DNA of 42,054 nucleotides, taken from assembly GCA_014728535.1 (NCBI GenBank), contig WJLL01000053.1, forward strand, positions 1 through 42,054, written 5' to 3'. The position numbers and the translations under genes are program-made. The DNA is from Candidatus Portnoybacteria bacterium (GTDB lineage: Bacteria; Patescibacteriota; Minisyncoccia; RBG-13-40-8-A). This document shows positions 9,954 to 35,878 of this stretch, piece after piece; the stretch's first letter is position 1; each line of letters starts with the position of its first letter. The notes beneath the pieces were generated by a model. The model did no database searches. It worked only from the letters and a program-made list of their open reading frames with translations, and was not told the origin of the DNA.

Positions 9954-9968
9954 TTTTTTAAAAATTAA

Positions 9969-18859: not shown

Positions 18860-19840
18860 TTAATAAATGTACCCTATAATTCTCCAATCATCTTTATGAA
18901 GAGTTCTTACTTTTTTAATACCATAACCAAGATGCATTTCAGATATAGTAACATATGGACCATTTACTGATTCTACATAAGCAACATGACCATAATATGG
19001 ATGTTCTCTAGTAGCTATAACAGCTCCAGGGCGAGGTTCTGATCCTGTAGCAAACCCGTATCTAGGCGCCTTATAAATCCATGTCTTTGCATGACCACTC
19101 CAAGGAATATATCTTCTCTGAGCAACATACCAAGTACATTGTCCCCAAGGAAATTGATGGCTTTGGTTTGAATAAGGCCTTGGAAAAGTATTAGCAGTAG
19201 CATATGTTCTTGTTGGATAATAATAAACAGGCTTTTCGCCATTAGGAATAATTATTTCCTGTCCAACAGCCAATTCTCCATCAGCAGGCAGACCATTAAA
19301 CTCAATGGTTTCTTCAAAGTCTCCATGGTATTTATCTACAATGCCTTGCAAGGTATCACCGCTTTTAACTGTATAACTAATACCAGAAACAGGAAGAATA
19401 ACCAACTCTTGTCCTGGCTTAATATAGTCCCAAGAACCAAGATCATTAGCCCACAATAGCGTATTTGTAGAAATGCCAAACAAAGCAGCTATCTTAGAAG
19501 GAACGTCTCCAGGCTTAACTGTATAAGTAATCTTAGCACTTCTTTCTTTTCCTAAATAAGGCAGCTCGCCAGAAGGAGAGTGAGTAGAAATATAAGCACT
19601 ACCAAGCAACACATTAGATGTTTCAAAATAACCCTCATTAACATAAACCTCTTCTATTATTGTTTCATTAGAATTTAAATACTCTGAAGCATAAACAAAA
19701 GATCCTCTCCTTATTATTTCTGTTTCTTCATCAACAGGATAAGTACCAAAACTATCAGCAATGGTTTGAGTTAATGTAACACAAACAAAGACAATAAAAA
19801 TAATTGCTACTGCCCTCCCAAAAGAGAGTTTTCGCAGCAA
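18860..19840 (-). CDS. peptidoglycan hydrolase: signal anchor, two LysM domains and a C-terminal CHAP domain
   Basis: LysM 1 is YTVKPGDVPSKIAALFGISTNTLLWANDL and LysM 2 is YTVKSGDTLQGIVDKYHGDFEETIEFNGL. CHAP Cys context is PWGQCTWYVA and His context is YGHVAYVE. The only in-frame start before the TM segment is TTG at 19840. Confidence 0.82.
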   Translation of the reverse strand: MLRKLSFGRAVAIIFIVFVCVTLTQTIADSFGTYPVDEETEIIRRGSFVYASEYLNSNETIIEEVYVNEGYFETSNVLLGSAYISTHSPSGELPYLGKERSAKITYTVKPGDVPSKIAALFGISTNTLLWANDLGSWDYIKPGQELVILPVSGISYTVKSGDTLQGIVDKYHGDFEETIEFNGLPADGELAVGQEIIIPNGEKPVYYYPTRTYATANTFPRPYSNQSHQFPWGQCTWYVAQRRYIPWSGHAKTWIYKAPRYGFATGSEPRPGAVIATREHPYYGHVAYVESVNGPYVTISEMHLGYGIKKVRTLHKDDWRIIGYIY

Positions 19841-20139: not shown

Positions 20140-22050
20140 ATGGATGCACTAAGAGAATTAAATCCAAAACAGAGAAAGGCTGTTCAAACAACAGAAGGGC
20201 CTGTTTTAATATTGGCTGGCCCAGGATCAGGAAAAACAAAAGTACTCACATACAGACTAGCATATTTAATGCAAAAAGAAATAAGGCCAGAAAACATAAT
20301 AGCACTGACATTCACAAACAAAGCAGCAGAAGAAATGAAGCAAAGAGTGTCAATAATCTTAAATAAAAAATCCCCTCTTCCTTTTATAGGAACATTTCAT
20401 TCTTTTGGATTAAGAATCTTAAGAAAAGAAATAGATAAAATAAAAGGATATAAAAAATCTTTTACAATATATGACGAAGAAGACAAAAAAAGACTAATAA
20501 AGAAATTAATAAAAAGACTAGAAATAAACAAAGAACAATTCAATTATAAGAAAGTAGCTGCAACAATATCAGCCCTAAAAAGCGAAATTATCGATCCAAA
20601 AGAATATGAAAGCCAGGCAAGCGAATTCTTTGAAAAAACAATAAGCAAAATATATACAGAATATCAAAAAGAATTAAAAAACAACAATGCTCTTGATTTT
20701 GATGATTTAATAATGTTTTGCGTAAAACTGTTCCAAAAAAATCCAGAAACATTAAAAAAATACCAAAACCAATTTAAATACATATTAGTAGATGAATATC
20801 AAGATACAGATATGGCCCAATACAAATTAATAAGAATGCTTTCAGAGAAACATCAAAATCTTTGCGTAGTAGGAGATGACGCCCAATCAATATATAGTTT
20901 CAGAAATGCAGATTTTAGAAATATATTAAACTTTGAAAAAGATTATCCAAAAGCAAAAACAATAACCCTAGACCAAAATTATAGATCAACTCAAGTCATC
21001 TTAGACGCAGCATCTGAATTAATATCAAGAAACACGTATCAAAAAACAAAAAACCTATGGACCAAAAACTCATCAGGACCACCAATATCACTAGTCCAAT
21101 CAAGGAATGAAAAAACAGAAGCAGAAATAATAGCAAAAAAAATAAAGGAATTTTCAAAAAAAGGATTTAATTTAAATGATTTTGCAGTATTTTACAGAAC
21201 AAATGCTCAATCAAGAGCATTAGAAGAATCATTTATTCAAAACAATATACCATATAAGCTAATAGGAGGAACGAAATTCTATCAAAGAAAAGAAATAAAA
21301 GATATTATTGCTTATCTAAAATTCATACAAAACAATGATGAAATAAGCATGGAAAGAATAATAAACACGCCAAGAAGAGGAATAGGAAAAATAACTCTAA
21401 AAAAAATACAAACCCAAGGAATAAAAAAGCAAACAAAAAAAGAAATAAAAGAATTCTATAATCTAATACAAAATCTAAAAGAAAAATCAAAGAAAACTCC
21501 CTTATCTGAACTAATAAAAGAATTAACAAAAAAAATAAAATACAAAGAATATCTAAAAAATAAATACGGAGACAGCCAAACAAAAGAGGGCGTACCTGAA
21601 TACGAAGCAAGATGGCAAAATGTGAAAGAACTAATAAACATGTCAACAGAATTTGACAAATCACCAAAAGGACTAGAAGAATTCTTAGAAAAAACAGCTC
21701 TATTTTCAGAAACAGACGAAATAACAAAAGAAAAACAAGTAGTCCACCTAATGACCCTGCACACAGCAAAAGGACTAGAGTTCCCAGTTGTATTTATAAA
21801 AGGATGCGAAGAAGGAATTCTTCCTCATTCTCGCAGCCTATTAAATCCTCTAGATATAGAGGAAGAAAGAAGATTACTTTATGTAGGAATAACGAGAACA
21901 AAAAAGCACCTATATATCACCTACGCTCAAACAAGAACAAGCTGGGGAAGTATAGAGGCAAATCCACCATCAAGATTTTTAAATGAAATACCAGAACACC
22001 TAATCACAGCAGAAACAGACGAAGAAGAAATAGATTTAATAGATTTTTAA
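20140..22050 (+). CDS. pcrA: UvrD/PcrA/Rep-family ATP-dependent DNA helicase
   Basis: 636 aa with SF1 motifs AGPGSGKT, LVDEYQDT, VGDDAQSIYSFR, DQNYRST, TLHTAKGLEF and LLYVGITRTKK. Confidence 0.9.
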   Translation: MDALRELNPKQRKAVQTTEGPVLILAGPGSGKTKVLTYRLAYLMQKEIRPENIIALTFTNKAAEEMKQRVSIILNKKSPLPFIGTFHSFGLRILRKEIDKIKGYKKSFTIYDEEDKKRLIKKLIKRLEINKEQFNYKKVAATISALKSEIIDPKEYESQASEFFEKTISKIYTEYQKELKNNNALDFDDLIMFCVKLFQKNPETLKKYQNQFKYILVDEYQDTDMAQYKLIRMLSEKHQNLCVVGDDAQSIYSFRNADFRNILNFEKDYPKAKTITLDQNYRSTQVILDAASELISRNTYQKTKNLWTKNSSGPPISLVQSRNEKTEAEIIAKKIKEFSKKGFNLNDFAVFYRTNAQSRALEESFIQNNIPYKLIGGTKFYQRKEIKDIIAYLKFIQNNDEISMERIINTPRRGIGKITLKKIQTQGIKKQTKKEIKEFYNLIQNLKEKSKKTPLSELIKELTKKIKYKEYLKNKYGDSQTKEGVPEYEARWQNVKELINMSTEFDKSPKGLEEFLEKTALFSETDEITKEKQVVHLMTLHTAKGLEFPVVFIKGCEEGILPHSRSLLNPLDIEEERRLLYVGITRTKKHLYITYAQTRTSWGSIEANPPSRFLNEIPEHLITAETDEEEIDLIDF

Positions 22051-22847
22051 TGAAAAATACAAAAGAAAAATTAAAACAATATAATATCAGGCCAACAAAA
22101 AAATTAGGCCAGAATTTTTTAACAAACAAAGATTCTTTAAATAAAATATTAAAGGCAATAGACCCAAAACAAGACGACACCATAATAGAAATTGGCCCAG
22201 GACTAGGAGCATTAACAAAGGAATTATCAAAAAAAGCAAAAAAAATAATAGCAATAGAAAAAGACAAAAGACTATACAATGTCCTCAAGCAAAATATAAA
22301 GAACAAAAACATAGAATTAATAAACAAGGACATACTAGAATATCAACCACCAAAAATAAAATACAAGCTGGCAGGCAACATCCCCTACTACATAACCTCC
22401 CCAATAATCAGAAAATTCCTAGAAGAAAAAAGCAAGCCAGAAAAAATAACCCTAACAACACAAAAAGAAGTAGCTCAAAGGATATGCCAACAACCACCAA
22501 AAACAAACCTTTTAGCAATATCTGTTCAATTCTATGCAATACCTAAAATAGAAGCACACATACCAAAAGAACATTTCTCGCCAAAACCAAAAGTAGATTC
22601 AGCAATAATAAATATAAAACCAAAAAAACAACTCCCTCTAAAAGAAAATCAAATAAAAGATTTTTTTAAATTAATTAAAATAGGCTTTTCCTCAAAAAGA
22701 AAAACCCTTTTAAATAATTTAAATTCAAAAATAAAAAAAGAAAAATCAGAAATAGAAAAAATACTAAAAAAATCAAACATAAAAAGCAAAGTCAGAGCAG
22801 AAAGCTTATCAATCCAAGACTGGCTAAATCTTTTCCACAATATATAG
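22050..22847 (+). CDS. rsmA: 16S rRNA (adenine1518/1519-N6)-dimethyltransferase
   Basis: KKLGQNFL, SAM motif IIEIGPGLGALT, and GNIPYYITSPI. There is a 1-nt TAATG overlap with pcrA. Confidence 0.9.
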   Translation: MKNTKEKLKQYNIRPTKKLGQNFLTNKDSLNKILKAIDPKQDDTIIEIGPGLGALTKELSKKAKKIIAIEKDKRLYNVLKQNIKNKNIELINKDILEYQPPKIKYKLAGNIPYYITSPIIRKFLEEKSKPEKITLTTQKEVAQRICQQPPKTNLLAISVQFYAIPKIEAHIPKEHFSPKPKVDSAIINIKPKKQLPLKENQIKDFFKLIKIGFSSKRKTLLNNLNSKIKKEKSEIEKILKKSNIKSKVRAESLSIQDWLNLFHNI

Positions 22848-22900: not shown

Positions 22901-23911
22901 ATGACCAAAGAAAAAGGTACAAAACTACCTATAGCAGCTATAGTGTCAGCTACATTTTTGGCTATTGCTTTAATAATTTTTATAGGAGCATATAGTGAAA
23001 AGGAGGCTTTTTCAAAAATAAATCTTTGGGGAGCAAAAGAAACAGAAATTGAATCAAGAAACAAAGACACAGACCAAGACGGATTAAAGGACTGGGAAGA
23101 AAACCTATATGACACAGACCCAACAAACCCAGACACTGACGGAGACGGCTATCTAGACGGAGAAGAAATAGATTCAGGCCACAATCCAACAGTAAAAGGG
23201 CCAGGAGATCAACTAGCATTCTATCCCCTTCCCCTAGGAGAAAAATACAATATCACCCAAAGAGTATTTACTGATTCGGAAAAAATAATAAAAAATTATT
23301 TAATCCAAAAAAGCCAATTCTTAGAAGATCACCCAGAAATAAACAGTCCAGAAGAATTCTTAGCGCAGATTGATCAAACAACACTAAATGAGCTTTTTAA
23401 AAGAGCAATACTAGAAAACCAAAAAGACTGGGCAGAAAGAGCAGAAAAAATACTGGAGGAATCTCCAGAAATATTTGAAATACAAGTTTCAGATCAAGAC
23501 ATATACATATCAGAAGACAATAGCGCAGAAAACAAACAAAAATATCTAAGCAAGCTATCAGAATACATAAACTCCCAAGACTTCTTTCTACAAGAGAGAA
23601 GTTTTTTGCTATTAAAAAACGATCTCCCTCAAAACAAATTCACCGACCTAGAAAACCTAATAAAAGAAAATGAAAGGCAAATAAGAAGACTAAGAGAAAC
23701 AGAAGTCCCCTCATCTCTAAAAGAAATACACAAAAAAGTATTAAAAATATCAATAACCCTAAGAAACATATTTATATCAGCCATAGATTATGATTCAGAT
23801 CCAATGAAGGCAGTAATAGGATTAAACAAAGCAAAGGACGCAATAAAGCTATGGGAAGCTCTATCCCCTCAAATACAAAAAGCTGCTGAAGAAAATAATG
23901 TAGAAATATGA
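22901..23911 (+). CDS. membrane-anchored protein with thrombospondin type-3-like Ca-binding repeats
   Basis: 336 aa. N-terminal TM (LPIAAIVSATFLAIALIIFIGAY), then DTDQDGLKDWEENLYDTDPTNPDTDGDGYLDGEEIDSGHNP (DxDxDG repeats). The rest is helical and unassigned. First ORF of the block. Confidence 0.6.
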   Translation: MTKEKGTKLPIAAIVSATFLAIALIIFIGAYSEKEAFSKINLWGAKETEIESRNKDTDQDGLKDWEENLYDTDPTNPDTDGDGYLDGEEIDSGHNPTVKGPGDQLAFYPLPLGEKYNITQRVFTDSEKIIKNYLIQKSQFLEDHPEINSPEEFLAQIDQTTLNELFKRAILENQKDWAERAEKILEESPEIFEIQVSDQDIYISEDNSAENKQKYLSKLSEYINSQDFFLQERSFLLLKNDLPQNKFTDLENLIKENERQIRRLRETEVPSSLKEIHKKVLKISITLRNIFISAIDYDSDPMKAVIGLNKAKDAIKLWEALSPQIQKAAEENNVEI

Positions 23912-26649
23912 AAAAATCTATTGCAATAATTTTAATTATCGCATTGACCCTGAGCCTAGGGATGAATTTTTTAATATTTAAGCCCAAAAAAGCAAATGCA
24001 GTATTAGGAATTGGAGACATAACAGTGGATATAGTAAATCAAGTAAAAGAGTGGGTCTTAGACCAGCTACCAAAAAGCCTGGCTAGGCATGGAATGGTAA
24101 GGATACAACAAGAAATAGCTAGATGGGCCCAAGGAGGATTTACCGAAGAAAACAAGCCCTTTGCAATGACTGACTGGAAAGCAGAGGTAAATCAAGCTTT
24201 AAACATTGCCTCAGGAAGGTTTATACAAGAATTTAATCTAACGCCTCTTTGTATGCCACTCCAAATAAGCATAGGAGAGCGCTTGGAGCTAAATAGGCCA
24301 TATTATTCTGTGCCCTATACTCAATATGCAGCCTGCACAATCGATCAAGTAGTAGATAATGCAGAAGCTTTTTGGGAAAACCCATCCATAAGCGTATACG
24401 GATGGGATACATGGAGTGCATTAATGAGGCCTGAAAATAATATCTTTGGAGCAACATTAATGGCAATAGAAAGAAGAGCAGAGATAGAGGAAGAAGAAGT
24501 AGAAGAAAAAGAAAAAGAATTCGAAGCAGGACAAGGATATATGAATGAAAATGAATGCATGGAAGAACAAGTATTAACAGAAGAACAATTAGAAGCGTGC
24601 AAAAACAAATGTAGAGAAGATGAGAAAGCACAAACTGACCCTATGTGGCTAGCAAGCTGCATATACAAATGCGATAGTCAAAACACAGGCATATGTCTTG
24701 AATATAGAACAACAAATGTAGGATCTAGCATTCATTCTTCTGTTGAAAAAAGCATAGGCTCAGACATTGACTGGCTAATAACAGCAGATGAAATTACTGA
24801 ATTATTAAATCTTGTTTTTTCAAGCCTCTTCTCTAAAATGATGCATGGCATAGGATTAACAGGAAGCTCTTATGCGGCCACAAGCGACATATCGAAACAG
24901 CAACTAGAATATGGCTATCATTCAGACTACAAAAAATCTTTAACATCAGCAGACATAAAAGAAGCAAGAAGAAATATATTAGAAAATATTCTTAATTCAG
25001 TTAAAAAGCTATCAACTACAAGCTATGAGTGTGACACAAAACACCAACTAGAGGGAAGGGTTTTTCAAGAAATGGTTGCAGAAATAATAGATCAAGAAGC
25101 CCAGCATCTATATTCTGTATCAGAAGGAGTAGATCTTAAACCAGACTTCCAAGTATTAGACAGCGCAGTTGCTGTAAACAACGGCTATGCAGTATATGGG
25201 CAAACATGGGATGATATTCCTTTAAGCAAGTACCCTCAAAAATGCCTAGAAACAACAGACACGCAGTGCAAAAATATAACAACAAGACTTCCATATGAGC
25301 TAAATATAAGCAACATAAACGATGAATGCTCAACCGGTTGTTTAGGAAGAATAAATGAATACAGAATAGAAGGATTCACGGACGCAGAGGCTGTAACAAA
25401 GGCAACACAAGATGGATATTGCTCAACAACAACAATAGGAACTGCCTGCATAGAAGGAGCTCATTTAATAAACAAAACAAAAAATAGATGCGAGGACTGT
25501 ATAACAAAAGCAGAAAGTATTTGCAGTACAAAAATAGGAGATGAAAGAGAGAGCTGTATAGAACTTTATTGCAGCAACTATGAAGATATATCAACATCAA
25601 TAACAAGCGCAGAAGACTTTTACAACCGCTGTGGTACTTCTATAACAAAAGAGGGCTGCTATACATGCCTAAAAGAGTACTTTATGCCTGCATATTATTG
25701 CTGGCAAATGTATGAATATGTAAACAGAGCCTTTATAAAATACCCAGCCCAAGCAAAAGAAGATTTATGGTGGGGAGGATATAATGACTTTGACTTATCA
25801 GACCCTTATTGTCCCGACAACAGAACTCCGTCAGACGCAAAAATACCAGTTGGTTTAGTTTGTAGAATATTGCCAAATTACAATATGAAAACTTTAACAT
25901 GTGAAGCGCTCTGTAATACAACAGAAGAAGAATTAAAAGACATAACAGACAATGAACCTCAAAATGTCGATTGTGCTGACGCAACAGGAGCTCCTTTGCA
26001 ATGGGATTTAGATGCCTTCCATCCAGGAGGACAATATTTAGATCATTTATCAACAAAAAGAACTAAGTGTTGTGGAGCGCTTACCGGCCACAACATATCT
26101 TTGTATTTAAAGTGCAGAGGCGAAGTAGGAGACTCGTCACAACAACACGAAACCCCAACCCCCTGCGAAGACTGGAACCCAAACTACAAAGGAGTGGGAG
26201 GACTAAGCAACATGTCTCTGGCATACCCAAATAGAAGCTTCAGCGAAGAGATATTAAAACCAGACGCTTACACTTCTGAAGCATATCTTGTTTCAATGAA
26301 AGATCCATACAGAGGAGCTACTCTATATATTAGCGAACCATATTGTGATGCTAAAAGAACATATGCTGATGGATCGGTTTCGGAATTCGATATAAATGGA
26401 GATGGGAAATTTAGTGACGAATTTGTAGATGATCCTAGATTTGAAGGACACTTTCTGGGCTATTGCAGAAACAAGACAACAGGAAACTACAAAAACCCAA
26501 CAGACATAATATGTAAAATAGATTTGTCAGAATATTCCTCTGCAGAAGAAGCATCAAAAGCTTGTCCAGAATTAGGAAATTACTCTGGAGGACTGTGGGG
26601 AACCATTCGCTACCCTAAAGGAGGAGTGGCTATATGCGTGCCAAAATAA
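23908..26649 (+). CDS. large secreted cysteine-rich orphan protein (913 aa)
   Basis: Signal/anchor MKKSIAIILIIALTLSLGMNFLIF. I counted about 38 Cys by hand, spread through the mature part. No family motif recognised. ATGA overlap with the upstream ORF. Confidence 0.6.
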   Translation: MKKSIAIILIIALTLSLGMNFLIFKPKKANAVLGIGDITVDIVNQVKEWVLDQLPKSLARHGMVRIQQEIARWAQGGFTEENKPFAMTDWKAEVNQALNIASGRFIQEFNLTPLCMPLQISIGERLELNRPYYSVPYTQYAACTIDQVVDNAEAFWENPSISVYGWDTWSALMRPENNIFGATLMAIERRAEIEEEEVEEKEKEFEAGQGYMNENECMEEQVLTEEQLEACKNKCREDEKAQTDPMWLASCIYKCDSQNTGICLEYRTTNVGSSIHSSVEKSIGSDIDWLITADEITELLNLVFSSLFSKMMHGIGLTGSSYAATSDISKQQLEYGYHSDYKKSLTSADIKEARRNILENILNSVKKLSTTSYECDTKHQLEGRVFQEMVAEIIDQEAQHLYSVSEGVDLKPDFQVLDSAVAVNNGYAVYGQTWDDIPLSKYPQKCLETTDTQCKNITTRLPYELNISNINDECSTGCLGRINEYRIEGFTDAEAVTKATQDGYCSTTTIGTACIEGAHLINKTKNRCEDCITKAESICSTKIGDERESCIELYCSNYEDISTSITSAEDFYNRCGTSITKEGCYTCLKEYFMPAYYCWQMYEYVNRAFIKYPAQAKEDLWWGGYNDFDLSDPYCPDNRTPSDAKIPVGLVCRILPNYNMKTLTCEALCNTTEEELKDITDNEPQNVDCADATGAPLQWDLDAFHPGGQYLDHLSTKRTKCCGALTGHNISLYLKCRGEVGDSSQQHETPTPCEDWNPNYKGVGGLSNMSLAYPNRSFSEEILKPDAYTSEAYLVSMKDPYRGATLYISEPYCDAKRTYADGSVSEFDINGDGKFSDEFVDDPRFEGHFLGYCRNKTTGNYKNPTDIICKIDLSEYSSAEEASKACPELGNYSGGLWGTIRYPKGGVAICVPK

Positions 26650-26655
26650 AGAATT

Positions 26656-28695
26656 ATGATTAATAAAACAAAAAAACTAAAAATATTTTTATTAACAGGA
26701 ATTACATCCTTTATAATTCCTAAAATTGTTTTTGCAGGTTGGTTTGGTCCTGGCTGGATAGTTGAATTATCTAAAGGAGTATTAAAATCATCAGCCGTAG
26801 GATTAGGACGGTCAATATTAACAGCAATTACAGAGATTTTTCTACATATTGTGTCTTTTCTTGTACAGCTATCTTCTTTTCTTTTTGAAGGAGCTCTTAA
26901 AATAAGTTTTTCAAAAAACTTGTATATAATAGAAGCAGGGTGGGAGGTGACTAGAGATATAGCAAACATGCTCTTCATTCTATTTCTTGTAATAATTGCC
27001 TTTGGAACAATTTTAAGAGTTGAAAATTATCAAGCTAAAAAACTTTTGCCGAAACTAATATTAATAGCTCTTTTGATAAATTTCAGTATGGTATTTGCTT
27101 ATGTTGTAGTTGACTTCACAAACATTACTGCCTCTTTTTTCATAAAAGACATAAAGGTAGGACCTCTTGTAGACAGCCTGAAGATGGTTAACGTTTTTTT
27201 ACCAATGGAATGTAGTGATATGGAATTAGATGAAGAAGCGCAAAGCAAGTGTGAATCGTACGTAGAAAGCCAGGGCCTAACTAATTTTTGGGGATTCATA
27301 CTGTCTATGATGTTTGGCACAATATTTCTTTTAATACTATCATTTGTTTTATTAGCAGGAACCGCTCTTCTTTTAGTAAGAACAATATTTATATGGTTTC
27401 TTGTAATACTAGCTCCTATGGCATTTATATGTTACATCCTTCCAGGTCTTAGAAAAAATTGGCAACAGTGGTTGAGCACATTTTTAAGATGGTGCATTTT
27501 CGCCCCAGCTTATGCTTTCTTTCTATGGCTAACAATAAAAGTAGCAATAGAAGGAAAAGCAAGAATGCTGACAAAAACACACAGCCCTGATTTTATGGGC
27601 GCAGGAACTATGGGTGCTCTTACAGAATCCCCTGCAATGCTTTTGCATTATATAATAATAATAGGAATGCTCATAGGATCCTTAATAGCAGCAAGCAAGT
27701 TTGGGATTTACGGATCAAACACATTAATGAAAGTCAGCAAAAAAGTAGGCAAGTGGGGGCTAAGAAAAGCAAGCAGAAAACCAGCTGATATAGCAGCAAG
27801 AGGAGTAGGTAGCGCAATGCAAAGAGTTGGACAATCAAAACTTTTTGGAGGAGAAGATACTCGCCGAGGAAGAGCCCTTATAACAAGAGGCAAGCAAATA
27901 TATCAAACGCCAGCAATGACCGAAGAAGCAAAAAGATTTAGAAAAAGAATGAATCAATTAACTGACGAAGGAAAGGTAAAGGCATTTAAACAAGCATCAG
28001 GAGGGTTGGCTATGGTAGGAGCAATGGAGTCACTAGACGCATTAAAGAAGAGCGAAGACAGAGAGGCAATCAACAAAGGAGTTGCTGTTTTAAGAGCAAA
28101 TAATAAGATAAAGGCAGCCAAAGATCTTGAAGAATTAAGATTTGATGCAATAGGAGACAAAGACAAGGCAATAAAGGCAATAACTAAGGGAATAGAAAAA
28201 GGAATTAATAAGTCATATAAAGCAGAATCTTTTAAAGACCAACAAGGCCAAATAGCCGCCAGACGCTTTGTTGAATCACTAGAAGACATATCAGAGGTTA
28301 TAGATAAAACAAAGGAGATGCCAAAAGCAACTCGAAAAGCAGAAGCAGAAGCAATAAAGCAAGAATTTACTGACTTTTCAGAAGAAGACATTAAAAGAAG
28401 AGCATCTTTCTATGCTGCAACAGGAAAATTATTAGAAGCATTTGAAGATCAAAGCGGAAACATCAATGAGTCAGAAATGAAAAAATTTGCAAACAAATTA
28501 AGACCAAAAGACTTTGCCAATATAGACATGAATGCCATTCCCGAAATAGCCGTCTCCATAACAGATCAAGGACTAGCAAGAGACATGGGCAAAGAATTAT
28601 CAGCAAAACAAAAATTAGAATTTGCCTCTAATTTCCAAAGTGATATTCGAAATGCACTAAAAGATGATAAAAATTGGAAGTCATATATTTCTTAA
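26656..28695 (+). CDS. polytopic membrane protein, VirB6/TrbL-like candidate, with a long hydrophilic C-terminal extension
   Basis: 679 aa. Multiple TM segments in the first ~370 aa with a TrbL/VirB6-like layout, then about 300 aa of charged helical sequence. The call rests on position next to PrgI/VirB4 and on topology. Confidence 0.5.
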   Translation: MINKTKKLKIFLLTGITSFIIPKIVFAGWFGPGWIVELSKGVLKSSAVGLGRSILTAITEIFLHIVSFLVQLSSFLFEGALKISFSKNLYIIEAGWEVTRDIANMLFILFLVIIAFGTILRVENYQAKKLLPKLILIALLINFSMVFAYVVVDFTNITASFFIKDIKVGPLVDSLKMVNVFLPMECSDMELDEEAQSKCESYVESQGLTNFWGFILSMMFGTIFLLILSFVLLAGTALLLVRTIFIWFLVILAPMAFICYILPGLRKNWQQWLSTFLRWCIFAPAYAFFLWLTIKVAIEGKARMLTKTHSPDFMGAGTMGALTESPAMLLHYIIIIGMLIGSLIAASKFGIYGSNTLMKVSKKVGKWGLRKASRKPADIAARGVGSAMQRVGQSKLFGGEDTRRGRALITRGKQIYQTPAMTEEAKRFRKRMNQLTDEGKVKAFKQASGGLAMVGAMESLDALKKSEDREAINKGVAVLRANNKIKAAKDLEELRFDAIGDKDKAIKAITKGIEKGINKSYKAESFKDQQGQIAARRFVESLEDISEVIDKTKEMPKATRKAEAEAIKQEFTDFSEEDIKRRASFYAATGKLLEAFEDQSGNINESEMKKFANKLRPKDFANIDMNAIPEIAVSITDQGLARDMGKELSAKQKLEFASNFQSDIRNALKDDKNWKSYIS

Positions 28696-28698: not shown

Positions 28699-29106
28699 AT
28701 GCAATTTCAAGTACCACAATATACAGACATAGAAGATAAAGTAATAGGCCCACTAACCATAAAACAGTTTATGTATCTTTTGGTAGCAGGCATAATAATC
28801 TTTATCTTCTACAAACTTTTCAATTTCGCAATCTTTATTATCCTCTCGATCCCCATAGCTCTAATAGCTATAACATTTGCATTTGTAAAAATACATGATC
28901 AGCCTTTTTCTGTAATAGTAATTAATTTTTTTAGCTTTTTAAAAAAACCAGACTATTATGTCTGGAAAAGGCCAAAAGAAAAAGAAATATTGGAACAAGA
29001 AGAAGAGCCAAAAATAATAAAAAGGGAGGAGGCGCCAAAAAGACAAGAAAAAAAACCAAAAAGCAGGTTAAATGAATTAAATTGGAAAATAGAAATAAAA
29101 AAATAA
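28699..29106 (+). CDS. PrgI-family (VirB3-like) small membrane protein
   Basis: 135 aa. MQFQVPQYTDIEDKVIGPLTIKQFMYLL followed by two TM segments, as in the Gram-positive T4SS PrgI family. Sits immediately upstream of VirB4. Confidence 0.7.
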   Translation: MQFQVPQYTDIEDKVIGPLTIKQFMYLLVAGIIIFIFYKLFNFAIFIILSIPIALIAITFAFVKIHDQPFSVIVINFFSFLKKPDYYVWKRPKEKEILEQEEEPKIIKREEAPKRQEKKPKSRLNELNWKIEIKK

Positions 29107-29107: not shown

Positions 29108-29737
29108 ATGGCAATAAATTTACCAAAAAAAGCTCCAGCAGTACAAGATTTTGTAGAAATAAAAGACATAAGAGACGGAGTGGCAATAACAAAAGACAAC
29201 AATCTAAGATCTGTTTGTATATGCTCAAGTATAAACTTCAGTCTCTTAAGTAAGGACGAAAAAGAAGCAGTAATTGCTTCATTTCAAGAATTTTTAAACT
29301 CTTTAGACTTTACTGTACAAATAATAATAGCATCTAGGCATTTTAAAATAGATTCATACCTAGACCAAATAAAAGAATTAGAAAAAAAACAAACAAATGA
29401 ATTATTAAGAATTCAAACACAGGAATATATAAGTTTCGTAGAAAGCTTTGTTGATTTTGCAAATATAATGAATAAGTCTTTTTATGTAATAATTCCCTTT
29501 GGAGCAATAGAGTCAAAAGAAGAATCAATACTAGAAAAAATACAAAATGTAATAGGATCAAAAACATCAAGCCAACAAAGCTTAAAAATGGAAAGATTTA
29601 GCCAATATAAGAAACAATTAGATCAAAGAGTGAATTTAGTAATAGAAGGACTCCAAGGAATAGGAGTAAAAGCCGTTCCTTTAAATGACGAACAATTAAC
29701 AGAGCTTTATTACGAATTCTACAACGTAGACAAATGA
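29108..29737 (+). CDS. VirB4-type ATPase, N-terminal domain encoded as a separate ORF
   Basis: 209 aa. VQDFVEIKDIRDGVAITKDNNLRSVCICSSINFSLLSKDEKEAVIASFQEFLNSLDFTVQIII matches the N-terminal region of Gram-positive VirB4/ConE/TcpF-like ATPases. Ends with TGA overlapping the next ATG. Confidence 0.65.
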   Translation: MAINLPKKAPAVQDFVEIKDIRDGVAITKDNNLRSVCICSSINFSLLSKDEKEAVIASFQEFLNSLDFTVQIIIASRHFKIDSYLDQIKELEKKQTNELLRIQTQEYISFVESFVDFANIMNKSFYVIIPFGAIESKEESILEKIQNVIGSKTSSQQSLKMERFSQYKKQLDQRVNLVIEGLQGIGVKAVPLNDEQLTELYYEFYNVDK

Positions 29738-31518
29738 GTTTATTCAAAAAGAAAAAACAAAAAACAGCAACCCCAGAAGGCTTGCCAGAAGAAGGCATGT
29801 CATTAATTGATGCAATAGCACCCTCTGCTTTGCAAATAACCTCAAACTACATTCAAATAGGAAATAAATTTGCTAAAACATTATTCGTAATAACATATCC
29901 AAGGTTTTTAACAGTAAGCTGGCTTTCTCCAATAATAAACACGGACAGAGTATTTAACATATCAATGTTTGTGCATCCAACAGACACAGGCATAATATTA
30001 AAAAAATTAAGAAAGAAATTAACTCAGATAGAGTCTCAAATAACAACAGAACAAGAAGAAGGAAAGGTAAGAAATCCTGTTTTAGAAACAGCCAGACAAG
30101 ACGTAGAATCATTAAGAGACAGACTCATCCAGGGAACAGAAAAGTTTTTCAAATATGGTCTTTATATAACAATATTTGAAGATTCTCCAGAAAAACTAAG
30201 AGAAACAGAAGAGCAAATGCTTTCTATGTTTGAATCAAAGATGGTATATATCAGACCAGCATTATTTCAACAAGAAAAAGGAATAAATTCAACTATACCT
30301 ATAGGAAAAGATAGATTACTAGTAACAAACTCAATGAACACAGAGCCTCTTTCCACAACATTTCCTTTTGTATCCTCTACTCTTTCATCAGATAAAGGAA
30401 TTCTTTACGGAATAAATCGCCACAACAATAGCCTAATAATATTTGATAGATTTTCTTTAGAAAATGGCAACATGGTCATTTTTGGGAAATCAGGCTCAGG
30501 AAAATCATATGCTGTAAAAGTAGAATTATTAAGATCACTAATGCTTGGAACAGACTGCATAGTCATTGATCCAGAAAATGAATATCAATATCTGGCAGAA
30601 ACAACAGATGGAGCATTCTTTGACATATCTCTTAGCTCCCAAGTCCACATAAATCCATTTGATATTTCACCTCCAGGAGAAGATGAAACAAACGAAGAAG
30701 TATATAAATCAAAAATAATGGATCTAGTAGGATTAATGAAGGTAGCCCTAGGAGACCTAACCCCAGAAGAAGACTCAATACTAGACAGAGCATTAAATGA
30801 AACATACGCATCAAAAGACATAACACCAGACTCTGATTTTAAAAAAATCACCCCTCCCCTGCTAGAAGATCTGCAAACAATACTAGAAAACATGGAGGGA
30901 GGAGATAGTCTAGCAAAAAGACTGCAAAGATATACAAAAGGAAGTTTTGCTGGGTTCTTAAACAAGCCAACAAATATAGATATAAACAAGCACTTGGTAG
31001 TATTCAGCACAAGAGACATGGATGATGAATTAAAACCAATAGCTATGTATCTTATTCTTCAATACATTTGGAATCTAATAAGATCCCAGCTAAAGAAAAG
31101 AATTATGGTAGTAGATGAAGCTTGGTGGATGATGAAATATGAATCAGGAGCATCATTCCTTCATGGAATAGCAAAAAGATGTAGAAAATATTGGCTAGGC
31201 CTAACAACAATAACCCAAGACATCCCAGATTTTATGAATTCTGATTATGGCAAGGCTATTATCACAAACTCTTCTCTTCAAATATTATTCAAGCAATCTC
31301 CTGCAACAATTGATGTAGTAAAAGAAACATTCAACCTTACAAATGAAGAAAAATATCTTCTTCTCCAAGCAGATGTAGGAGAAGGAATATTCTTTGCAGG
31401 AATAAAACATGCAGCTATAAAAGTAGAAGCATCATATACTGAAGACCAAATAGTAACATCCAGTCCTGAACAAATAATGAAAATCAGAGGAGCCAAGGAA
31501 GAGATAGAAGAAAAATAA
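29734..31518 (+). CDS. virB4: VirB4-family type IV secretion ATPase (middle and C-terminal ATPase domains)
   Basis: 594 aa. APSALQITSNYIQIGNKFAKTLFVITYPRFLTVSWLSPII is the typical VirB4 middle domain. Walker A is FGKSGSGKSY and Walker B is IMVVDEAWWMM, with TTITQDI near the C-terminus. Confidence 0.85.
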   Translation: MSLFKKKKQKTATPEGLPEEGMSLIDAIAPSALQITSNYIQIGNKFAKTLFVITYPRFLTVSWLSPIINTDRVFNISMFVHPTDTGIILKKLRKKLTQIESQITTEQEEGKVRNPVLETARQDVESLRDRLIQGTEKFFKYGLYITIFEDSPEKLRETEEQMLSMFESKMVYIRPALFQQEKGINSTIPIGKDRLLVTNSMNTEPLSTTFPFVSSTLSSDKGILYGINRHNNSLIIFDRFSLENGNMVIFGKSGSGKSYAVKVELLRSLMLGTDCIVIDPENEYQYLAETTDGAFFDISLSSQVHINPFDISPPGEDETNEEVYKSKIMDLVGLMKVALGDLTPEEDSILDRALNETYASKDITPDSDFKKITPPLLEDLQTILENMEGGDSLAKRLQRYTKGSFAGFLNKPTNIDINKHLVVFSTRDMDDELKPIAMYLILQYIWNLIRSQLKKRIMVVDEAWWMMKYESGASFLHGIAKRCRKYWLGLTTITQDIPDFMNSDYGKAIITNSSLQILFKQSPATIDVVKETFNLTNEEKYLLLQADVGEGIFFAGIKHAAIKVEASYTEDQIVTSSPEQIMKIRGAKEEIEEK

Positions 31519-31531: not shown

Positions 31532-31969
31532 ATGGCTACAGTAACAGAGCAAGAAAAGAATAATCAGATTAGATTAAAGGAGCAAAGGGCAAAAGCAGAT
31601 ATAGAATCTGATGATAGCGGCATTACCCCAGCATCTATTATAACAGTAGCAGAGTTTGTGTTGGTCTTTGGAGCAGCAATAACGCTAGATTTAATAGACA
31701 TTTTAGACTTTACTGGCGTAGGAGCAATATTAGTAAGGTTTATAGACATACCAACACTGGGATTTATATGGCTATGGAGAATATTAAAACAACAAAAAGG
31801 CCCCAAAAAAGATCCTACGCTTAAACTTTTATCTGCTTTTCTTGTGGAAATAAGCCCTATAGGCCTTATTCCTTCATGGTCAATATTTGTCATATATGTT
31901 TTTTTCCAAGATACAAAAGTAGGCAAAAAAACTATATCAAAAGCCAAAAAAATTAAAACCAAAAAATGA
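31532..31969 (+). CDS. hypothetical small membrane protein
   Basis: 145 aa. Charged N-terminus, about 3 hydrophobic segments, Lys-rich C-terminus. No family recognised. Confidence 0.5.
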   Translation: MATVTEQEKNNQIRLKEQRAKADIESDDSGITPASIITVAEFVLVFGAAITLDLIDILDFTGVGAILVRFIDIPTLGFIWLWRILKQQKGPKKDPTLKLLSAFLVEISPIGLIPSWSIFVIYVFFQDTKVGKKTISKAKKIKTKK

Positions 31970-32730
31970 TTAAAAAAATACTAATAACATTATTAATAGC
32001 AATTTTTCCAATAACAGCATTAGCTCAAGTAGATTTTAATTTAGACAACATATTTGATACATATAATTTTGTGCCCTCTAGGGTAGAACTGCAAGGATAT
32101 CAAATGATTTGGTCAACAGACACATATACTCCTTATGAATACAAAGGAAGAGCGCTCCCTTCTATAGGAAGCGATGTAATTGTAGAAGCCATAGTCAACA
32201 CAAGTAATGGCAGCCCAAGTGATTTAAAATATAGTTGGTTTATAGATGATATATTTCAAAGAAGCAGATCAGGATACGGAAAAACAAAGCTAAAATTTAC
32301 TGCAACACGACCAGGAGGATCTTATCACTCCATAAGACTACAAATATTCAATGAAGACAGAACAATATTTCAAGAAAAAACAATAAAGATACCAATAGCA
32401 AGTCCTGAATTAAAGATCACCTCAAGCCCAGAAAACAATTATTTTTCCAGACAAGACAAAAGCCCTCTTGTTATCTTTGCTGACAAACAAAACGCTCTTA
32501 CAGCCCAACCATACTTTTTTAGCATAAAATCTCTAAGTGACTTATCTTTTGAGTGGATGTTTGAAGAAAAAAAGGTAAATTCATCAGAATACAGAGCAAA
32601 TGTATTAAATTTAAATATAACAAACAAAGACACAGAAGAAATAATTGAAAGAACATTAAATGTAAGAGTTTTTAATAAAAATAATCCAAACCAAGAAGTA
32701 TATAAAAATATAAATCTTCTTATAGATTAA
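31966..32730 (+). CDS. hypothetical secreted protein
   Basis: 254 aa. Cleavable-looking signal MIKKILITLLIAIFPITALAQ and a beta-rich composition. ATGA overlap upstream and TAATG overlap downstream. Confidence 0.55.
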   Translation: MIKKILITLLIAIFPITALAQVDFNLDNIFDTYNFVPSRVELQGYQMIWSTDTYTPYEYKGRALPSIGSDVIVEAIVNTSNGSPSDLKYSWFIDDIFQRSRSGYGKTKLKFTATRPGGSYHSIRLQIFNEDRTIFQEKTIKIPIASPELKITSSPENNYFSRQDKSPLVIFADKQNALTAQPYFFSIKSLSDLSFEWMFEEKKVNSSEYRANVLNLNITNKDTEEIIERTLNVRVFNKNNPNQEVYKNINLLID

Positions 32731-33548
32731 TGAAAAAATATAAAAACATAATTTTTATAATAATCTTCCTGGCGGTCTTAATTCCTCTAAAATTTTCTTT
32801 AGCAGAAACCAGCCTTTTATTAGACTACCCAGAAATAAAAGGAATTCAGCCAGGCACAGAAAGCAATTTGTCTGAAATAATAGCATACATATATTACTTT
32901 GCTCTTGGCATAGCAGGAGTAGCAGCCTTGGTTGTAATAATAATAGGAGCAGCTCAATATACTTTTTCAGCAGGAAATGAATCACAAATGAGTGATGCAA
33001 AAAACAGAATAATATCTGCTATATTAGGAGTAATTCTTCTTTTGGCAAGTGTCTTGATATTAAGAGTAATAAATCCAGATTTAATAGACATAGGGCTAAA
33101 CCAAGAACAATTAGGAATAGACTATAAAGGCAACATGGAATATGCCTGCGAACTAACAAACACCTCTGATTGTGACGGAACCTTTATAACAGGATGCGCA
33201 TCAACCTTAGAGGCCTGTGTTTCTTTTTGCAAAGAACAGGCGAAGAATTTAGGAGCAACAGCCTCGAAGTGTATAGAAAAAATAAAGGAAATGGGGTCTT
33301 GCCAAACAACATGTCAAGAATACTCGAAAAGAAGCTATAAATGCTCCATAAAAAATGTTCCTAGCTGCAAAATAGATGGAGGAAGTGGTCGCTATGTTCC
33401 ACAAAGCGCCTGTTATGAAACAAAAGATGAATGTAAGTCTTTTTGTAAGAATAAAGCAGAAGAATTAGGAGGAGAAATGGAAGCTTGTTATTGGGTTAAA
33501 ACTAAACGCAACTGTATAAATTACCCAACAGGTTGTGAGCAAGATTAA
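32730..33548 (+). CDS. T4SS pilin-like (VirB2/TrbC analogue) protein with a C-terminal duplicated cysteine-rich module
   Basis: 272 aa. Signal segment, then NLSEIIAYIYYFALGIAGVAALVVIIIGAAQYTFSAGNESQMSDAKNRIISAILGVILLLASVLILRVINPDL, the two-helix hairpin typical of the T4SS pilin family common in Patescibacteria. The last ~150 aa hold 16 Cys by hand count, arranged in two similar repeats. Confidence 0.72.
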   Translation: MKKYKNIIFIIIFLAVLIPLKFSLAETSLLLDYPEIKGIQPGTESNLSEIIAYIYYFALGIAGVAALVVIIIGAAQYTFSAGNESQMSDAKNRIISAILGVILLLASVLILRVINPDLIDIGLNQEQLGIDYKGNMEYACELTNTSDCDGTFITGCASTLEACVSFCKEQAKNLGATASKCIEKIKEMGSCQTTCQEYSKRSYKCSIKNVPSCKIDGGSGRYVPQSACYETKDECKSFCKNKAEELGGEMEACYWVKTKRNCINYPTGCEQD

Positions 33549-33563: not shown

Positions 33564-34733
33564 ATGAATACAAAGGTTAAAAAAATATTAATAATAGTAA
33601 TTGCAATACTAGTACTGGCTTTAGCAGCATTCTTAATTTATAATCTTCTCATAAAGCCAGAATCTTCAAAAGAACCAGAAGGAACTTCTGGCCTACCTGA
33701 ATCAGAAAAAGGAACAACACAGCCAAATCAAGAAGATGAATTTACTCCTCAGCCAGAACAAAGAGTGAAAACAATAAGCAGTGAGCCTGTAGCAAGCGCA
33801 ACACTAACTCAAGACCAAGACCAGATAATATATTACTCTCAAACAAGCGGAAATGTTTGGACAGCTAATTTTGATGGATCAGATTTAACAAAATTCTCAG
33901 AAGCAAGTCTAGAAAATTTATTAGATGTATTGTGGTCTCCAGACAAAACCAAAGTCATAACAATATTCCAAGACAATCTAGGAAAAATACAAAAATACTT
34001 TTACAGCTATGAAACAAAAAAGGCGCTCCCGCTAAGTGAATATATGAAAGAAATAGCCTGGTCACCTTCAAGCGACAGGATTGCCTATCATTATTATAAT
34101 AGCCTAAATGACATAAACACTATAAATCTATCTAATCCTGATGGATCTAATTACTCAACAATACTAAACACAAGAATGAAAGACATAGATGTAAAATGGC
34201 CAAAAGGATCAGAGGTATATATATATGAAAAACCCTCTGGCTTAGCTCAAAGCTCACTTTATGCTTTAAACACCTACACCAGAGGATTTACAAAAATACT
34301 CTCAGATATATATGGCTTTAGCCCAAAATGGTCTAAAGATGGAACAAGAATTCTTTATTCGAAAACAGACTCAAGAGGAGAAGATATAGAAATATATACA
34401 ACAAGTTCAATAGGATCTAATCCAGAATCAGCAGGAATATCAACTCTAGCTGAAAAGTGCATTTGGTCTCAAGATCCTAGAATGATATATTGCGCTATAC
34501 CAGAAAACATAGACAAGGCCAAAACCCTGCCAGACGACTTCTATAAAGGAACATTTCAATCAATTGATAAATTCTGGAAAATAAATGTAGAAACGGGAGA
34601 AAAAACACAAATCCTAGCTGACTATGAAATATTAGAAGTATATGATGCAACAAACTTATTTCTTTCCCCGGAAGAAGATTTCCTATTTTTCATAAACAAA
34701 ACAAATGGCCTCTTGTATTCTATAGAGCTATAA
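33564..34733 (+). CDS. membrane-anchored PD40/TolB-like beta-propeller protein
   Basis: 389 aa. N-terminal TM and a Pro/Glu/Gln linker, then repeated WSPD-type blades (VLWSPDKTKVI, IAWSPSSDRIAYHY, PKWSKDGTRILYS, CIWSQDPRMIYC). Confidence 0.65.
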   Translation: MNTKVKKILIIVIAILVLALAAFLIYNLLIKPESSKEPEGTSGLPESEKGTTQPNQEDEFTPQPEQRVKTISSEPVASATLTQDQDQIIYYSQTSGNVWTANFDGSDLTKFSEASLENLLDVLWSPDKTKVITIFQDNLGKIQKYFYSYETKKALPLSEYMKEIAWSPSSDRIAYHYYNSLNDINTINLSNPDGSNYSTILNTRMKDIDVKWPKGSEVYIYEKPSGLAQSSLYALNTYTRGFTKILSDIYGFSPKWSKDGTRILYSKTDSRGEDIEIYTTSSIGSNPESAGISTLAEKCIWSQDPRMIYCAIPENIDKAKTLPDDFYKGTFQSIDKFWKINVETGEKTQILADYEILEVYDATNLFLSPEEDFLFFINKTNGLLYSIEL

Positions 34734-34747: not shown

Positions 34748-35878
34748 TTAAAAAGCCTTCTTATCAAGAAGGCTTTTGTTTATCACCATTAAGCCTAATA
34801 TAAGCCAAAATATAAAGGAAAGATCGTTTTTCCAATACAATGTATCAAAAAGCCCATGAATCAAAATATAGGCCATTCCAGACATCAATAACAAAGAAAT
34901 CTTTCCACCCTTAAAGCCCTCTCTATAAAACCACCACAATAAAATCAAAAAGCCAACAAAGCCTACAGTCCCTGCCTGAATTAAAAAGGCAAGATAAAGA
35001 TTGTGAGGCTGAGGAACCCCCCATTTAGGATAAGGAGGGAAATAGCTTTCAAAAGTGCCAGGGCCAATGCCTATAAAAGGATATTCTAAAAATACATCAA
35101 CTGCCTTTCCCCATATCAATAATCTTGCATCTATAGAAGAACTTCCTTCAGGCAAAATGTTTGATTTAAAGAAAAATAAACCCAAACAAATAATAAAAAA
35201 TAAAAGGCAAAAGAAAATAACTTCTTTTTTTCTTCCTTTTAAAAAATAAAGATAACAAAGACTAAAAACAAGAGAGCCTAAAACGCCAATCCAGGCACCA
35301 ATAGAAAAAGTAAGCAATAAAACAAAAAGATAAAAAATTACTAAAAAGAGCAAATAAGCTCTTTTTTTAAAATAAAACAATATTAAAGAAAAAATAAAAG
35401 CAGGAGCAATATACATTGCTAAAAAATTAGGAGAATTAAAAATGCCCTGCAATCTCCCCTGATGATTCCAGTCTCCAAACAAAGAAACAAGACCAACAAA
35501 AAAAGCAGAAAAAAGAAAAAAAATAATTACTTTAAATAATTTCTTTTTATCATCAACAATGCTTATTAAAACAAGAAAAAATAAAAAAGGAAGGATAAAC
35601 CACCCCTTCCATATACCAGCACTAACTCTAAAATTCCAAGAAAAAACAGTGCTTATGCTAACTCCAATAAAAAGAAACAATATTCCTAAAAACAATAATT
35701 TATTTTCCAAAAAAATCTTCTTTAAGCCGGCCCACCCTTTGCTTAAAAGCCACAAAACAAACAAAACTAATACAGAGATTTCTAAAAAATTAGTAGGAAT
35801 ATTAAAAACATCAAACCTTATTAAATACAAAGGAAAAAACAAAATAATAAAACAGAGGATATATAATAAGAAATTCAT
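34748..35878 (-). CDS. O-antigen ligase/polymerase-like (Wzy_C family) membrane protein
   Basis: 376 aa, polytopic, with a loop motif GRLQGIFNSPNFLAMYIAPAF typical of O-antigen ligase-like proteins. Confidence 0.65.
   Translation of the reverse strand: MNFLLYILCFIILFFPLYLIRFDVFNIPTNFLEISVLVLFVLWLLSKGWAGLKKIFLENKLLFLGILFLFIGVSISTVFSWNFRVSAGIWKGWFILPFLFFLVLISIVDDKKKLFKVIIFFLFSAFFVGLVSLFGDWNHQGRLQGIFNSPNFLAMYIAPAFIFSLILFYFKKRAYLLFLVIFYLFVLLLTFSIGAWIGVLGSLVFSLCYLYFLKGRKKEVIFFCLLFFIICLGLFFFKSNILPEGSSSIDARLLIWGKAVDVFLEYPFIGIGPGTFESYFPPYPKWGVPQPHNLYLAFLIQAGTVGFVGFLILLWWFYREGFKGGKISLLLMSGMAYILIHGLFDTLYWKNDLSFIFWLILGLMVINKSLLDKKAF
34751..34783. terminator. bidirectional terminator closing the T4SS-like operon, embedded in the 3' end of the convergent gene
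   Basis: AAAAGCCTTCTT-ATCA-AGAAGGCTTTT followed by GTTT. It overlaps the last codons (LLDKKAF) of the 34748..35878 gene. Confidence 0.7.

Follow-up and report, generated by a model that had tools for sequence, protein, structure and literature searches.

A cysteine-rich exported protein encoded in a type IV secretion gene array of a Candidatus Portnoybacteria bacterium, a candidate surface subunit with a variable distal part

Results

A large cysteine-rich protein encoded in a T4SS gene array

We analysed the 42,054 nucleotides (nt) of contig WJLL01000053.1 (assembly GCA_014728535.1; hereafter the window) from a Candidatus Portnoybacteria bacterium of the Patescibacteriota, and followed up a sequence-only reading that had singled out one open reading frame (ORF) in an array of type IV secretion system (T4SS)-like genes. 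This ORF lies at 23908-26649 (+), begins with ATG, encodes a protein of 913 amino acids (aa) and is the largest of the plus-strand array, as the reading had stated. The proposed translational coupling to the upstream gene was also seen, in the form of an ATGA overlap at 23908-23911: the ATG (23908-23910) overlaps the TGA (23909-23911) of a gene for a 336-aa bitopic protein (22901..23911, +), with a transmembrane (TM) segment predicted at residues 11-29 and TSP3 calcium-binding repeats (Pfam TSP3_bac, E 2.3e-7). The next gene begins 6 nt past the stop codon of the 913-aa ORF and encodes a polytopic protein of 679 aa (26656..28695, +), with at least seven predicted TM segments and a soluble C-terminal half. 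Because it is homologous (BLASTP, E 4e-43) to a protein of a related locus, L103, that carries Pfam TrbL_3, we assign it to the VirB6/TrbL family; its direct matches are weak (TraJ, E 0.0038; R388 TrwI by hhalign, E 0.004 against 0.046 for the reversed control).

Further downstream, on the same strand, lie genes for PrgI (VirB3-like; 28699..29106; Pfam PrgI, E 1e-9), for a TrsD/TraC-like protein similar to the VirB4 N-terminal part (29108..29737; NCBIfam TrsD and VirB4 N-terminal matches, with Pfam TraC-like in orthologues), for a CD1110-type, MPF_FATA-like VirB4 ATPase (29734..31518; NCBIfam conju_CD1110, E 2.4e-113, above cutoff, and Pfam P-loop_TraG) and for a VirB2-like pilin (32730..33548; Pfam T4SS_pilin, E 1.1e-9, residues 45-114). 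Array genes are separated by overlaps or gaps of 0-15 nt. The window is chromosomal, with housekeeping genes for ClpP, trigger factor, H+-pyrophosphatase, NusA, PNPase, UvrD, RsmA and DnaA, and Pfam and NCBIfam scans revealed neither a relaxase nor a coupling protein in the locus. Patescibacterial T4SSs have been described as MPF_FATA-related systems located near dnaA and ksgA, without a relaxase and with VirB2-like pilins (PMC12102498; PMC12857230). The window shares with them PrgI, TrsD, VirB4, a VirB6-like protein, a VirB2-like pilin and the proximity to dnaA and ksgA/rsmA (Quinonero-Coronel et al. 2025, PMC12102498; Wang et al. 2023, PMC10633639), and it likewise lacks relaxase and coupling protein genes. 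The system is related to the T4SSs of Gram-positive bacteria.

We counted exactly 38 cysteines in the 913-aa protein (4.2%), all of them after the signal peptide, with none in residues 1-32; a hand count in the sequence-only reading had given about 38. Each motif quoted there was present: RCEDC at residue 527, GCYTC at 583, KCC at 720, CKNKC at 231, CIYKC at 251 and the acidic EEEEVEEKEKE at 194. The cysteines form two CX2C and four CX3C motifs. Against a background of 50 cysteines in 11,254 residues (0.44%), taken over 30 other large ORFs of the window with this protein and the pilin excluded, the binomial probability of at least 38 cysteines in 913 residues is 2.5e-24. No CxxCH haem-binding motif, as expected of a multihaem cytochrome, was found in the protein.

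The N-terminus consists of MKK, a hydrophobic stretch of 20 residues and KPKKANA↓VLGIGD (arrow, cleavage site). On the grounds of sequence, hydropathy and conservation of A29 and A31, we assign residues 1-31 (24000 being the last nucleotide of 23908..24000, +) to a signal peptide. These two residues of the AxA site are kept in at least 90% of homologues, and distant family members also show a P-K/R-x-A-x-A↓GIGD cleavage pattern, which upholds the extracytoplasmic location proposed earlier. The protein ends in GGVAICVPK and has neither an LPXTG motif nor a hydrophobic C-terminal segment. Self-BLASTP detected no internal repeats, and scans against Pfam, NCBIfam (E <=0.01) and PHROGs returned no family.

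Conserved and even-numbered cysteines

A first homology search returned 31 homologues (34-53% identity), none bearing a family name. More than 30 homologues are full length, and all of those with an organism label belong to the Patescibacteria; a scan of a genome collection with the close alignment matched only six species genomes. In an alignment of 32 sequences, thirty-four of the 38 cysteines are present in at least 26. Three of the four non-conserved ones, C853, C869 and C886, lie in the C-terminal tail, and the least conserved of the remainder, C505, is kept in 26/32. Each sequence has between 36 and 70 cysteines, an even number in 29/32 (binomial P 1.3e-6, for sequences that are related to each other); the three with odd counts include a short protein (819 aa) and one without the usual N-terminus. 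Cysteines are also lost in pairs within the same protein, namely C217 with C263, C375 with C635 and C474 with C505, which is the pattern expected of paired disulfides. The exported part of the protein thus carries conserved, even-numbered cysteines, as a disulfide-rich exported protein would, and the cysteine positions proposed as a check in the sequence-only reading proved to be conserved. From these sequence features, the protein is probably extracytoplasmic and disulfide-bonded. The form with 36-70 cysteines is confined to the subfamily of the 913-aa protein; distant family members have 4-16.

The sole other cysteine-rich ORF of the window is the pilin, with 16 cysteines in 272 aa (5.9%) and a cysteine-rich C-terminal extension of about 160 aa, whose similarity to the 913-aa protein was insignificant. 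Pilin orthologues have 120-499 aa and 2-11 cysteines. VirB6-like proteins mostly contain 7-9 cysteines in the cysteine-rich lineage, against 0-5 in a distant clade. In the lineage of the 913-aa protein, cysteine enrichment thus seems to extend over the machine's entire outer face.

A widespread N-terminal module joined to variable C-terminal parts

Of 1.84 billion cluster representatives searched with the 32-sequence profile, 3,598 matched at E <=1e-3 and 2,382 at E <=1e-10. About 20 of the 3,598 are full length; most are proteins of 400-700 aa that match profile positions of about 1-325 only. The protein, called an orphan in the sequence-only reading, is therefore one only in the sense that its family lacks a name. 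The shared part, residues 32-325 (24001..24882, +), which we call the N-module, is delimited by the profile search, its core cysteines, regional identity and the structure model. It is mostly helical with one beta hairpin and is the most conserved region of the protein. Among 66 distant members its core cysteines are C115 (66/66), C143 (66/66), C217 (65/66) and C263 (54/66), and W73, P84, F155, W166, N177-N178, G181 and G210 are kept as well. One of the most conserved motifs of the module, T-P-G, occurs in 61-65 of the 66; the 913-aa protein has NVG instead, at residues 270-272 (24715-24723). The near-invariant columns contain no Asp, Glu, His, Ser or Lys, which favours a structural role and disfavours an enzyme. 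No Pfam, NCBIfam or PDB model matches the N-module. The EEEEVEEKEKE segment, earlier taken for an acidic linker, sits instead in a long predicted helix (residues 179-207) that aligns to a family-conserved helix.

Inserted into the N-module is a twin CX3C helical hairpin (residues 225-256, with C231x3C235 and C251x3C255; 24580..24675, +), recognised by its motifs and predicted secondary structure. It is a minority trait of the wider family, C231 being present in 13/66 distant members. Twin CX3C or CHCH helical hairpins are known from the small Tim proteins. Residues 231-255 resemble these at the motif level only, with two CX3C motifs on consecutive predicted helices; unlike small Tim proteins, the hairpin is an insertion in a bacterial extracellular protein, and we claim no homology.

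Residues 326-740 (24883..26127, +) form an all-alpha, lineage-specific central domain with 24 cysteines, defined by the model and by cysteine conservation, which was found only alongside the N-module. The remainder, residues 741-913 and the stop codon (26128..26649, +), is a variable, beta-rich tail with six cysteines, recognised by its identity values, its cysteines and the low confidence of its model. Within the subfamily, mean identity to the 913-aa protein falls from 55-60% in the N-module to 44-47% in residues 326-740 and 22% in residues 741-913; the twin-CX3C insertion stands at 36%. Beyond the N-module, domain scans of 132 family members recognised CHB_HEX_C_1/Fn3_assoc, F5/8 type C, PKD, fn3, bacterial Ig-like, Laminin_G_3 or cellulase-like domains in a few, among them glycan-binding and Ig-like types. 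The C-terminal parts of the other members matched nothing recognisable, and these parts vary between lineages. The cysteine-rich repeat DUF4215 (PF13948), recorded for a truncated relative (P0032) and matched in 2/66 other family members, was considered and rejected for the 913-aa protein, which has no Pfam match and no internal repeats.

AlphaFold2, run with the 32-sequence alignment, gave predicted local distance difference test (pLDDT) values of about 80-95 only for residues of about 325-740; the N-module and the tail were poorly modelled. With 66 distant sequences the N-module was still modelled at low confidence (pLDDT 66.9, predicted template modelling score (pTM) 0.38). This weak model shows strands at residues 213-222 and 261-270, with C217 and C263 one on each, and helices at 225-256 between them, which would place the twin-CX3C hairpin between the strands of the beta hairpin. 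Foldseek found no fold match for the full-length model (best E 1.4 in PDB and 0.16 in BFVD), a real negative as regards the confidently modelled central domain. According to the model, the latter is an all-helical, cysteine-stapled fold without a counterpart in PDB or among viral structures (BFVD). The best PDB hit of the weak N-module model had E 3.1, and no VirB5 or TraC structure was among its matches. PDB sequence searches with the full-length and N-module profiles returned only coiled-coil noise from the C-terminal parts of relatives. The Pfam, NCBIfam and PHROGs scans revealed no enzyme family, and the earlier statement that no known family could be assigned holds.

Conserved gene order and fusions to the upstream protein

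The whole T4SS array is kept in the same order in close relatives. To reach a distant clade, we took 14 N-module proteins with about 25-29% identity to the 913-aa protein and searched metagenome contigs with their alignment. This gave 80 loci, in which VirB4 is about 57% and UvrD about 42% identical to the proteins of the window. Where a distant locus extends at least 2.5 kb downstream of the N-module gene, the VirB6-like gene comes directly next (36/36); where it extends at least 9 kb, PrgI, TrsD and then VirB4 follow (18/18). Each distant locus has one copy of the N-module gene. Further locus contexts, including L103, show the same arrangement of N-module and VirB6-like genes. Every one of these contexts is a T4SS locus, but the searches that yielded them were aimed at the N-module protein itself. 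Within them the gene holds a conserved position in the VirB6/PrgI/TrsD/VirB4/pilin block, as a member of the T4SS locus should; the link to a T4SS and the place ahead of a VirB6-like gene, first noticed in the window, hold in every related locus examined. Judged by this gene order, the 913-aa protein is very probably associated with the T4SS.

An N-terminally anchored protein of 250-340 aa is encoded before the N-module gene in all loci, with TSP3 repeats in some lineages only (17/87). In three lineages the N-module itself begins at about residue 265-355, after an N-terminal anchor, as seen in P0120 (894 aa), P0160 (790 aa) and P0182 (963 aa). The loci of P0120 and P0182 have no separate upstream bitopic gene, and the first 300 or so residues of both proteins match separate bitopic proteins (phmmer E 6e-8 to 3e-4, in a 78-sequence set). 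In P0160 the anchor is followed by the N-module at 265-559, and the N-terminal part has no match to bitopic proteins. In P0182 the two parts are connected by a Gly-rich linker that lacks a hydrophobic segment. P0120 and P0160 retain an AHA↓(F/I)(W/F)GIGD junction; the stretch preceding it is weakly hydrophobic in P0120, and residues 283-301 of P0160 are TM-like, which would complicate the topology there. These 'Rosetta stone' fusions indicate that the bitopic protein and the N-module protein share one side of the membrane, the outer one, and act together. Being fusions to a membrane-anchored protein, they also favour a retained surface subunit over a released cargo.

Other features of the window and of related loci

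Between the VirB4 and pilin genes lie two syntenic genes (31532..32730, +) for conserved uncharacterised proteins, one of 145 aa with three predicted TM segments and one of 254 aa with a predicted signal peptide, neither of which matched a family in the Pfam, NCBIfam and PHROGs scans. VirB4 is split, the separate TrsD/TraC-like gene overlapping the ATPase gene by 4 nt, as has been published for this T4SS. The array closes with a gene, also syntenic, for a membrane-anchored beta-propeller protein (33564..34733, +; TolB-like, NCBIfam TolB propeller E 1.1e-7, below cutoff, with a predicted TM segment). Beyond it a palindromic hairpin of 12 pairs (34751..34777), likely a bidirectional terminator, stands between the array and a convergent Wzy-like gene. 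The genes that converge on the array end (34748-38472, -) encode an O-antigen ligase-like protein of the Wzy type and a polysaccharide flippase, and a Wzy-like gene occupies the same place in L001, L003 and L006. A promoter scan was uninformative (57 sites found, 62 expected).

On the other side, uvrD and rsmA/ksgA (20140-22847, +) are separated by 0 nt, and a gap of 53 nt leads to the TSP3 gene; the pair may share a transcript with the T4SS genes. Divergently upstream of uvrD is a LysM and CHAP gene (18860-19840, -). Nearly all long loci examined have a gene of this kind, LysM with M23 in other lineages, in the same slot (L001-L012, L014-L093, L103 and L105). The LysM hydrolase may be the VirB1-like wall hydrolase of the system, though uvrD and rsmA stand between. 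After the PNPase gene a 446-aa protein is encoded (17342-18682, +) that has no cysteine, a very acidic, Glu-rich N-terminal half and a single central TM segment, and that matches no family. In L001 and L003 this position is taken by unannotated ORFs of 352-375 aa. At the other end of the window, dnaA lies about 4.6 kb past the array end, the cumulative GC skew reaches its minimum at about 38-40 kb and the G+C content is 24% beyond 40 kb. The replication origin is probably near the 39367-42054 end.

In some related loci, small selfish-looking genes of the GIY-YIG, NYN, PDDEXK_3 and 23S_rRNA_IVP types are inserted between the VirB6-like and VirB4 genes (L001, 15239-15529; L004, 4707-5219; L103, 14348-14755 and 15366-15740; L007, about 7600-11364). 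The VirB4 reading frame of L007 has 1,257 aa against the usual 600 or so, which suggests that it holds an intein or an inserted element.

Discussion

Our results lead us to lean towards the reading that the 913-aa protein is a Sec-exported, disulfide-bonded surface subunit of the T4SS with a host-recognising distal part. Export by the Sec pathway and cleavage of the signal peptide would put it outside the membrane of a chromosomal, dnaA-proximal T4SS. There the N-module would dock on the outer face of the machine, beside the anchored TSP3 protein and the VirB6/TrbL-like platform. The all-helical domain of residues 326-740, stiffened by about 12 disulfides, would serve as a rigid head or spacer, and contact with the host surface would fall to the fast-evolving tail (residues 741-913), both distal parts being displayed outward. 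Host-cell binding, taken by itself, appears plausible from the variable distal sequence, and we rate it just short of probable. Such a role would resemble that of the T4SS adhesins VirB5/CagL, F-plasmid TraN and PrgB, with homology to none of them.

The comparison with known surface proteins of T4SSs bears on this reading. PrgB/Asc10 and PrgC are, as proposed here for the 913-aa protein, surface proteins that are encoded with an MPF_FATA T4SS and mediate cell contact. Unlike the sortase-anchored PrgB, PrgC and TraO, the 913-aa protein has no LPXTG motif and no C-terminal anchor. By hhalign, none of the pCF10 proteins PrgA-PrgM and PcfA showed homology to it; the probability for PrgB was 0.1% with either profile, and for PrgC it was 0.2% when the N-module was used and 9.3% for the full-length profile. 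F-plasmid TraN is a large, exported, T4SS-associated protein with many conserved cysteines and a variable part that is thought to bind the partner cell. The 913-aa protein has all of these traits in outline, being large, exported and T4SS-associated, with conserved cysteines and a variable part. The Pfam and NCBIfam scans, which matched it to no family at all, gave no hit to a TraN model either. TraN belongs to the outer membrane of diderms, whereas the organism studied here is regarded as monoderm (PMC12857230).

Several observations weigh against the proposed role as a host-recognising subunit. Patescibacteria are reported to lack a respiratory chain (PMC10633639), which leaves the oxidation of about 19 disulfides unexplained, and family scans found no Dsb-like gene in the 42-kb window. 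Recognisable binding domains occur in only about 10 of the 132 scanned family members. The uvrD, rsmA and LysM peptidase genes are as syntenic as the T4SS genes, so conserved position alone is no proof of function. Given the low confidence of the N-module model, docking on the machine is something that we only infer. The Southlakia T4SS is needed for epibiotic growth (PMC10633639); no other locus has been tested genetically, and no obvious counterpart is listed in it, as judged by annotation only; the family may be absent from the Saccharimonadia, the only group with genetics.

The sequence-only reading had offered a tip protein among its options, and a VirB5 counterpart would be just that: a pilus-nucleating protein on the VirB6-like platform, pushed out on the VirB2-like pilus with a host-binding head. 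Several traits are shared with VirB5, TrbJ and TraC (pKM101). The 913-aa protein is Sec-exported with an AxA signal peptide, mostly helical and encoded 6 nt upstream of a VirB6/TrbL-like gene, an arrangement close to R388's virB5-(eex)-virB6; mature chains of the family often start with (I/V)PV.D..N-like sequences or GIGD, as collected VirB5 proteins do; an adhesive role is possible in both; and the T4SS type has VirB2-like pilins yet no VirB5 reported. Sub-threshold matches to DUF4141 (4/66 members, best E 1.1e-4, residues 17-56) and TrbJ (2/66, best E 3.4e-4) point the same way. Profile comparison, however, did not bear the homology out: hhalign gave probabilities of 0.8% against R388 TrwJ and 0.6% against an alignment of nine VirB5 proteins collected from plasmids, and the N-module score against that alignment (19.1) was judged no better than that of a reversed control (16.4). 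The failure of Foldseek to find a VirB5 or TraC structure also speaks against VirB5, though the model is weak. A tblastn search of plasmids with a distant family member gave no match. The N-module, with about 290 aa and two conserved, predicted disulfides, is larger than the collected VirB5 proteins (about 210-260 aa); unlike them the family has 100-600 extra residues, and the membrane-anchor fusions in three lineages fit a retained subunit better than an outward-travelling tip. We therefore consider a VirB5 counterpart unlikely. The same fusions bear on whether the protein is instead an effector or toxin-like cargo, Sec-exported and then released or delivered by the T4SS, as in the case of pertussis toxin. 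A Sec signal, a variable C-terminus reminiscent of polymorphic toxins, the absence of a C-terminal anchor or LPXTG motif and a cellulase-like C-terminal domain in one relative would suit a cargo, as would a locus without coupling protein or relaxase, which matches the literature on this T4SS type (PMC12102498). Besides the fusions, the single copy per locus, the fixed slot in a structural block and the N-module conserved in all lineages speak for a built-in part; no neighbouring gene was recognised as an immunity gene in the Pfam and PHROGs scans, and the protein itself matched no toxin or enzyme family in Pfam, NCBIfam or PHROGs. Of the two possibilities in the earlier phrase 'structural or cargo element', the structural one is thus favoured by the fusions and by the fixed block position, and we regard a cargo as improbable.

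A structural part need not touch the host, and an envelope scaffold could replace VirB8 or VirB1, functions that are difficult to find in Patescibacteria, building or widening a channel through the wall. VirB8 homologues are rarely detected in Patescibacteria (PMC12102498), and the 913-aa protein is conserved, extracytoplasmic by prediction and encoded next to a VirB6-like gene. Its model, as far as it can be read, does not show VirB8's NTF2-like alpha+beta fold; PrgL, PrgK and the other Prg proteins of pCF10 gave no match, and no catalytic-type residue is conserved; the divergent LysM-CHAP or LysM-M23 hydrolase gene already stands upstream in nearly all long loci; and the distal half is swapped for lectin-like domains in some family members, which would be unexpected of a scaffold. 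We hold this account to be quite improbable. The cysteines, finally, might bind a metal such as zinc rather than form disulfides, considering that many Patescibacteria inhabit anoxic water and lack quinone-linked oxidases. Two CX2C and four CX3C motifs, the lack of a Dsb-like gene in the window and the reported lack of a respiratory chain would accord with metal binding. The paired motifs lie within predicted helices (CX3C at 231/235 and 251/255, CX2C at 528/531 and 584/587), which is the geometry of disulfide-stapled helical hairpins and not of zinc knuckles. Isolated, widely spaced cysteines are equally conserved, cysteines are lost in twos and not in fours, and 38 is not a multiple of four. 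Metal binding in place of disulfides appears very unlikely to us, and we continue to favour a disulfide-bonded surface subunit.

A bolder version of the surface-subunit reading, which we put forward as doubtful, is that the N-module defines an adaptor, so far missing from the patescibacterial T4SS, that faces outward. Though unrelated to VirB5, it would fill that protein's role, seated on the VirB6-like platform with the bitopic partner, and interchangeable lineage-specific heads would decide host attachment, the head here being a new disulfide-stapled all-helical fold. That the protein sits at a pilus tip is, on its own, rather unlikely. VirB2-like pilins and no adhesin have been reported for patescibacterial T4SSs (PMC12102498, PMC12857230), and adhesins such as PrgB were not detected, according to PMC12102498. 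The T4SS type is already known; the component described here, its family and its central fold are not described in PMC12102498 or PMC10633639, as far as these are searchable, and literature on DUF4141, on CPR (candidate phyla radiation) disulfide systems and on cysteine-rich patescibacterial T4SS proteins yielded nothing relevant.

Patescibacteria account for a large part of the uncultivated bacteria, and their life is one of attachment to other microbes. Their T4SS is the only type in single-membrane bacteria known to have VirB2-like pilins. The family described here, thousands strong and unnamed, is a fixed part of patescibacterial T4SS loci, and its combination of a conserved base and exchangeable outer domains, which in some cases are lectin-like, is the pattern expected of a host-recognition subunit. 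Its cysteine-rich form also raises the question of how so many disulfides would be oxidised without a respiratory chain. The family thus offers a concrete candidate for work on binding, localisation and host range, and a possible marker of host specificity across lineages. If the proposal is true, interchangeable heads would set which host cell the epibiont attaches to and feeds on.

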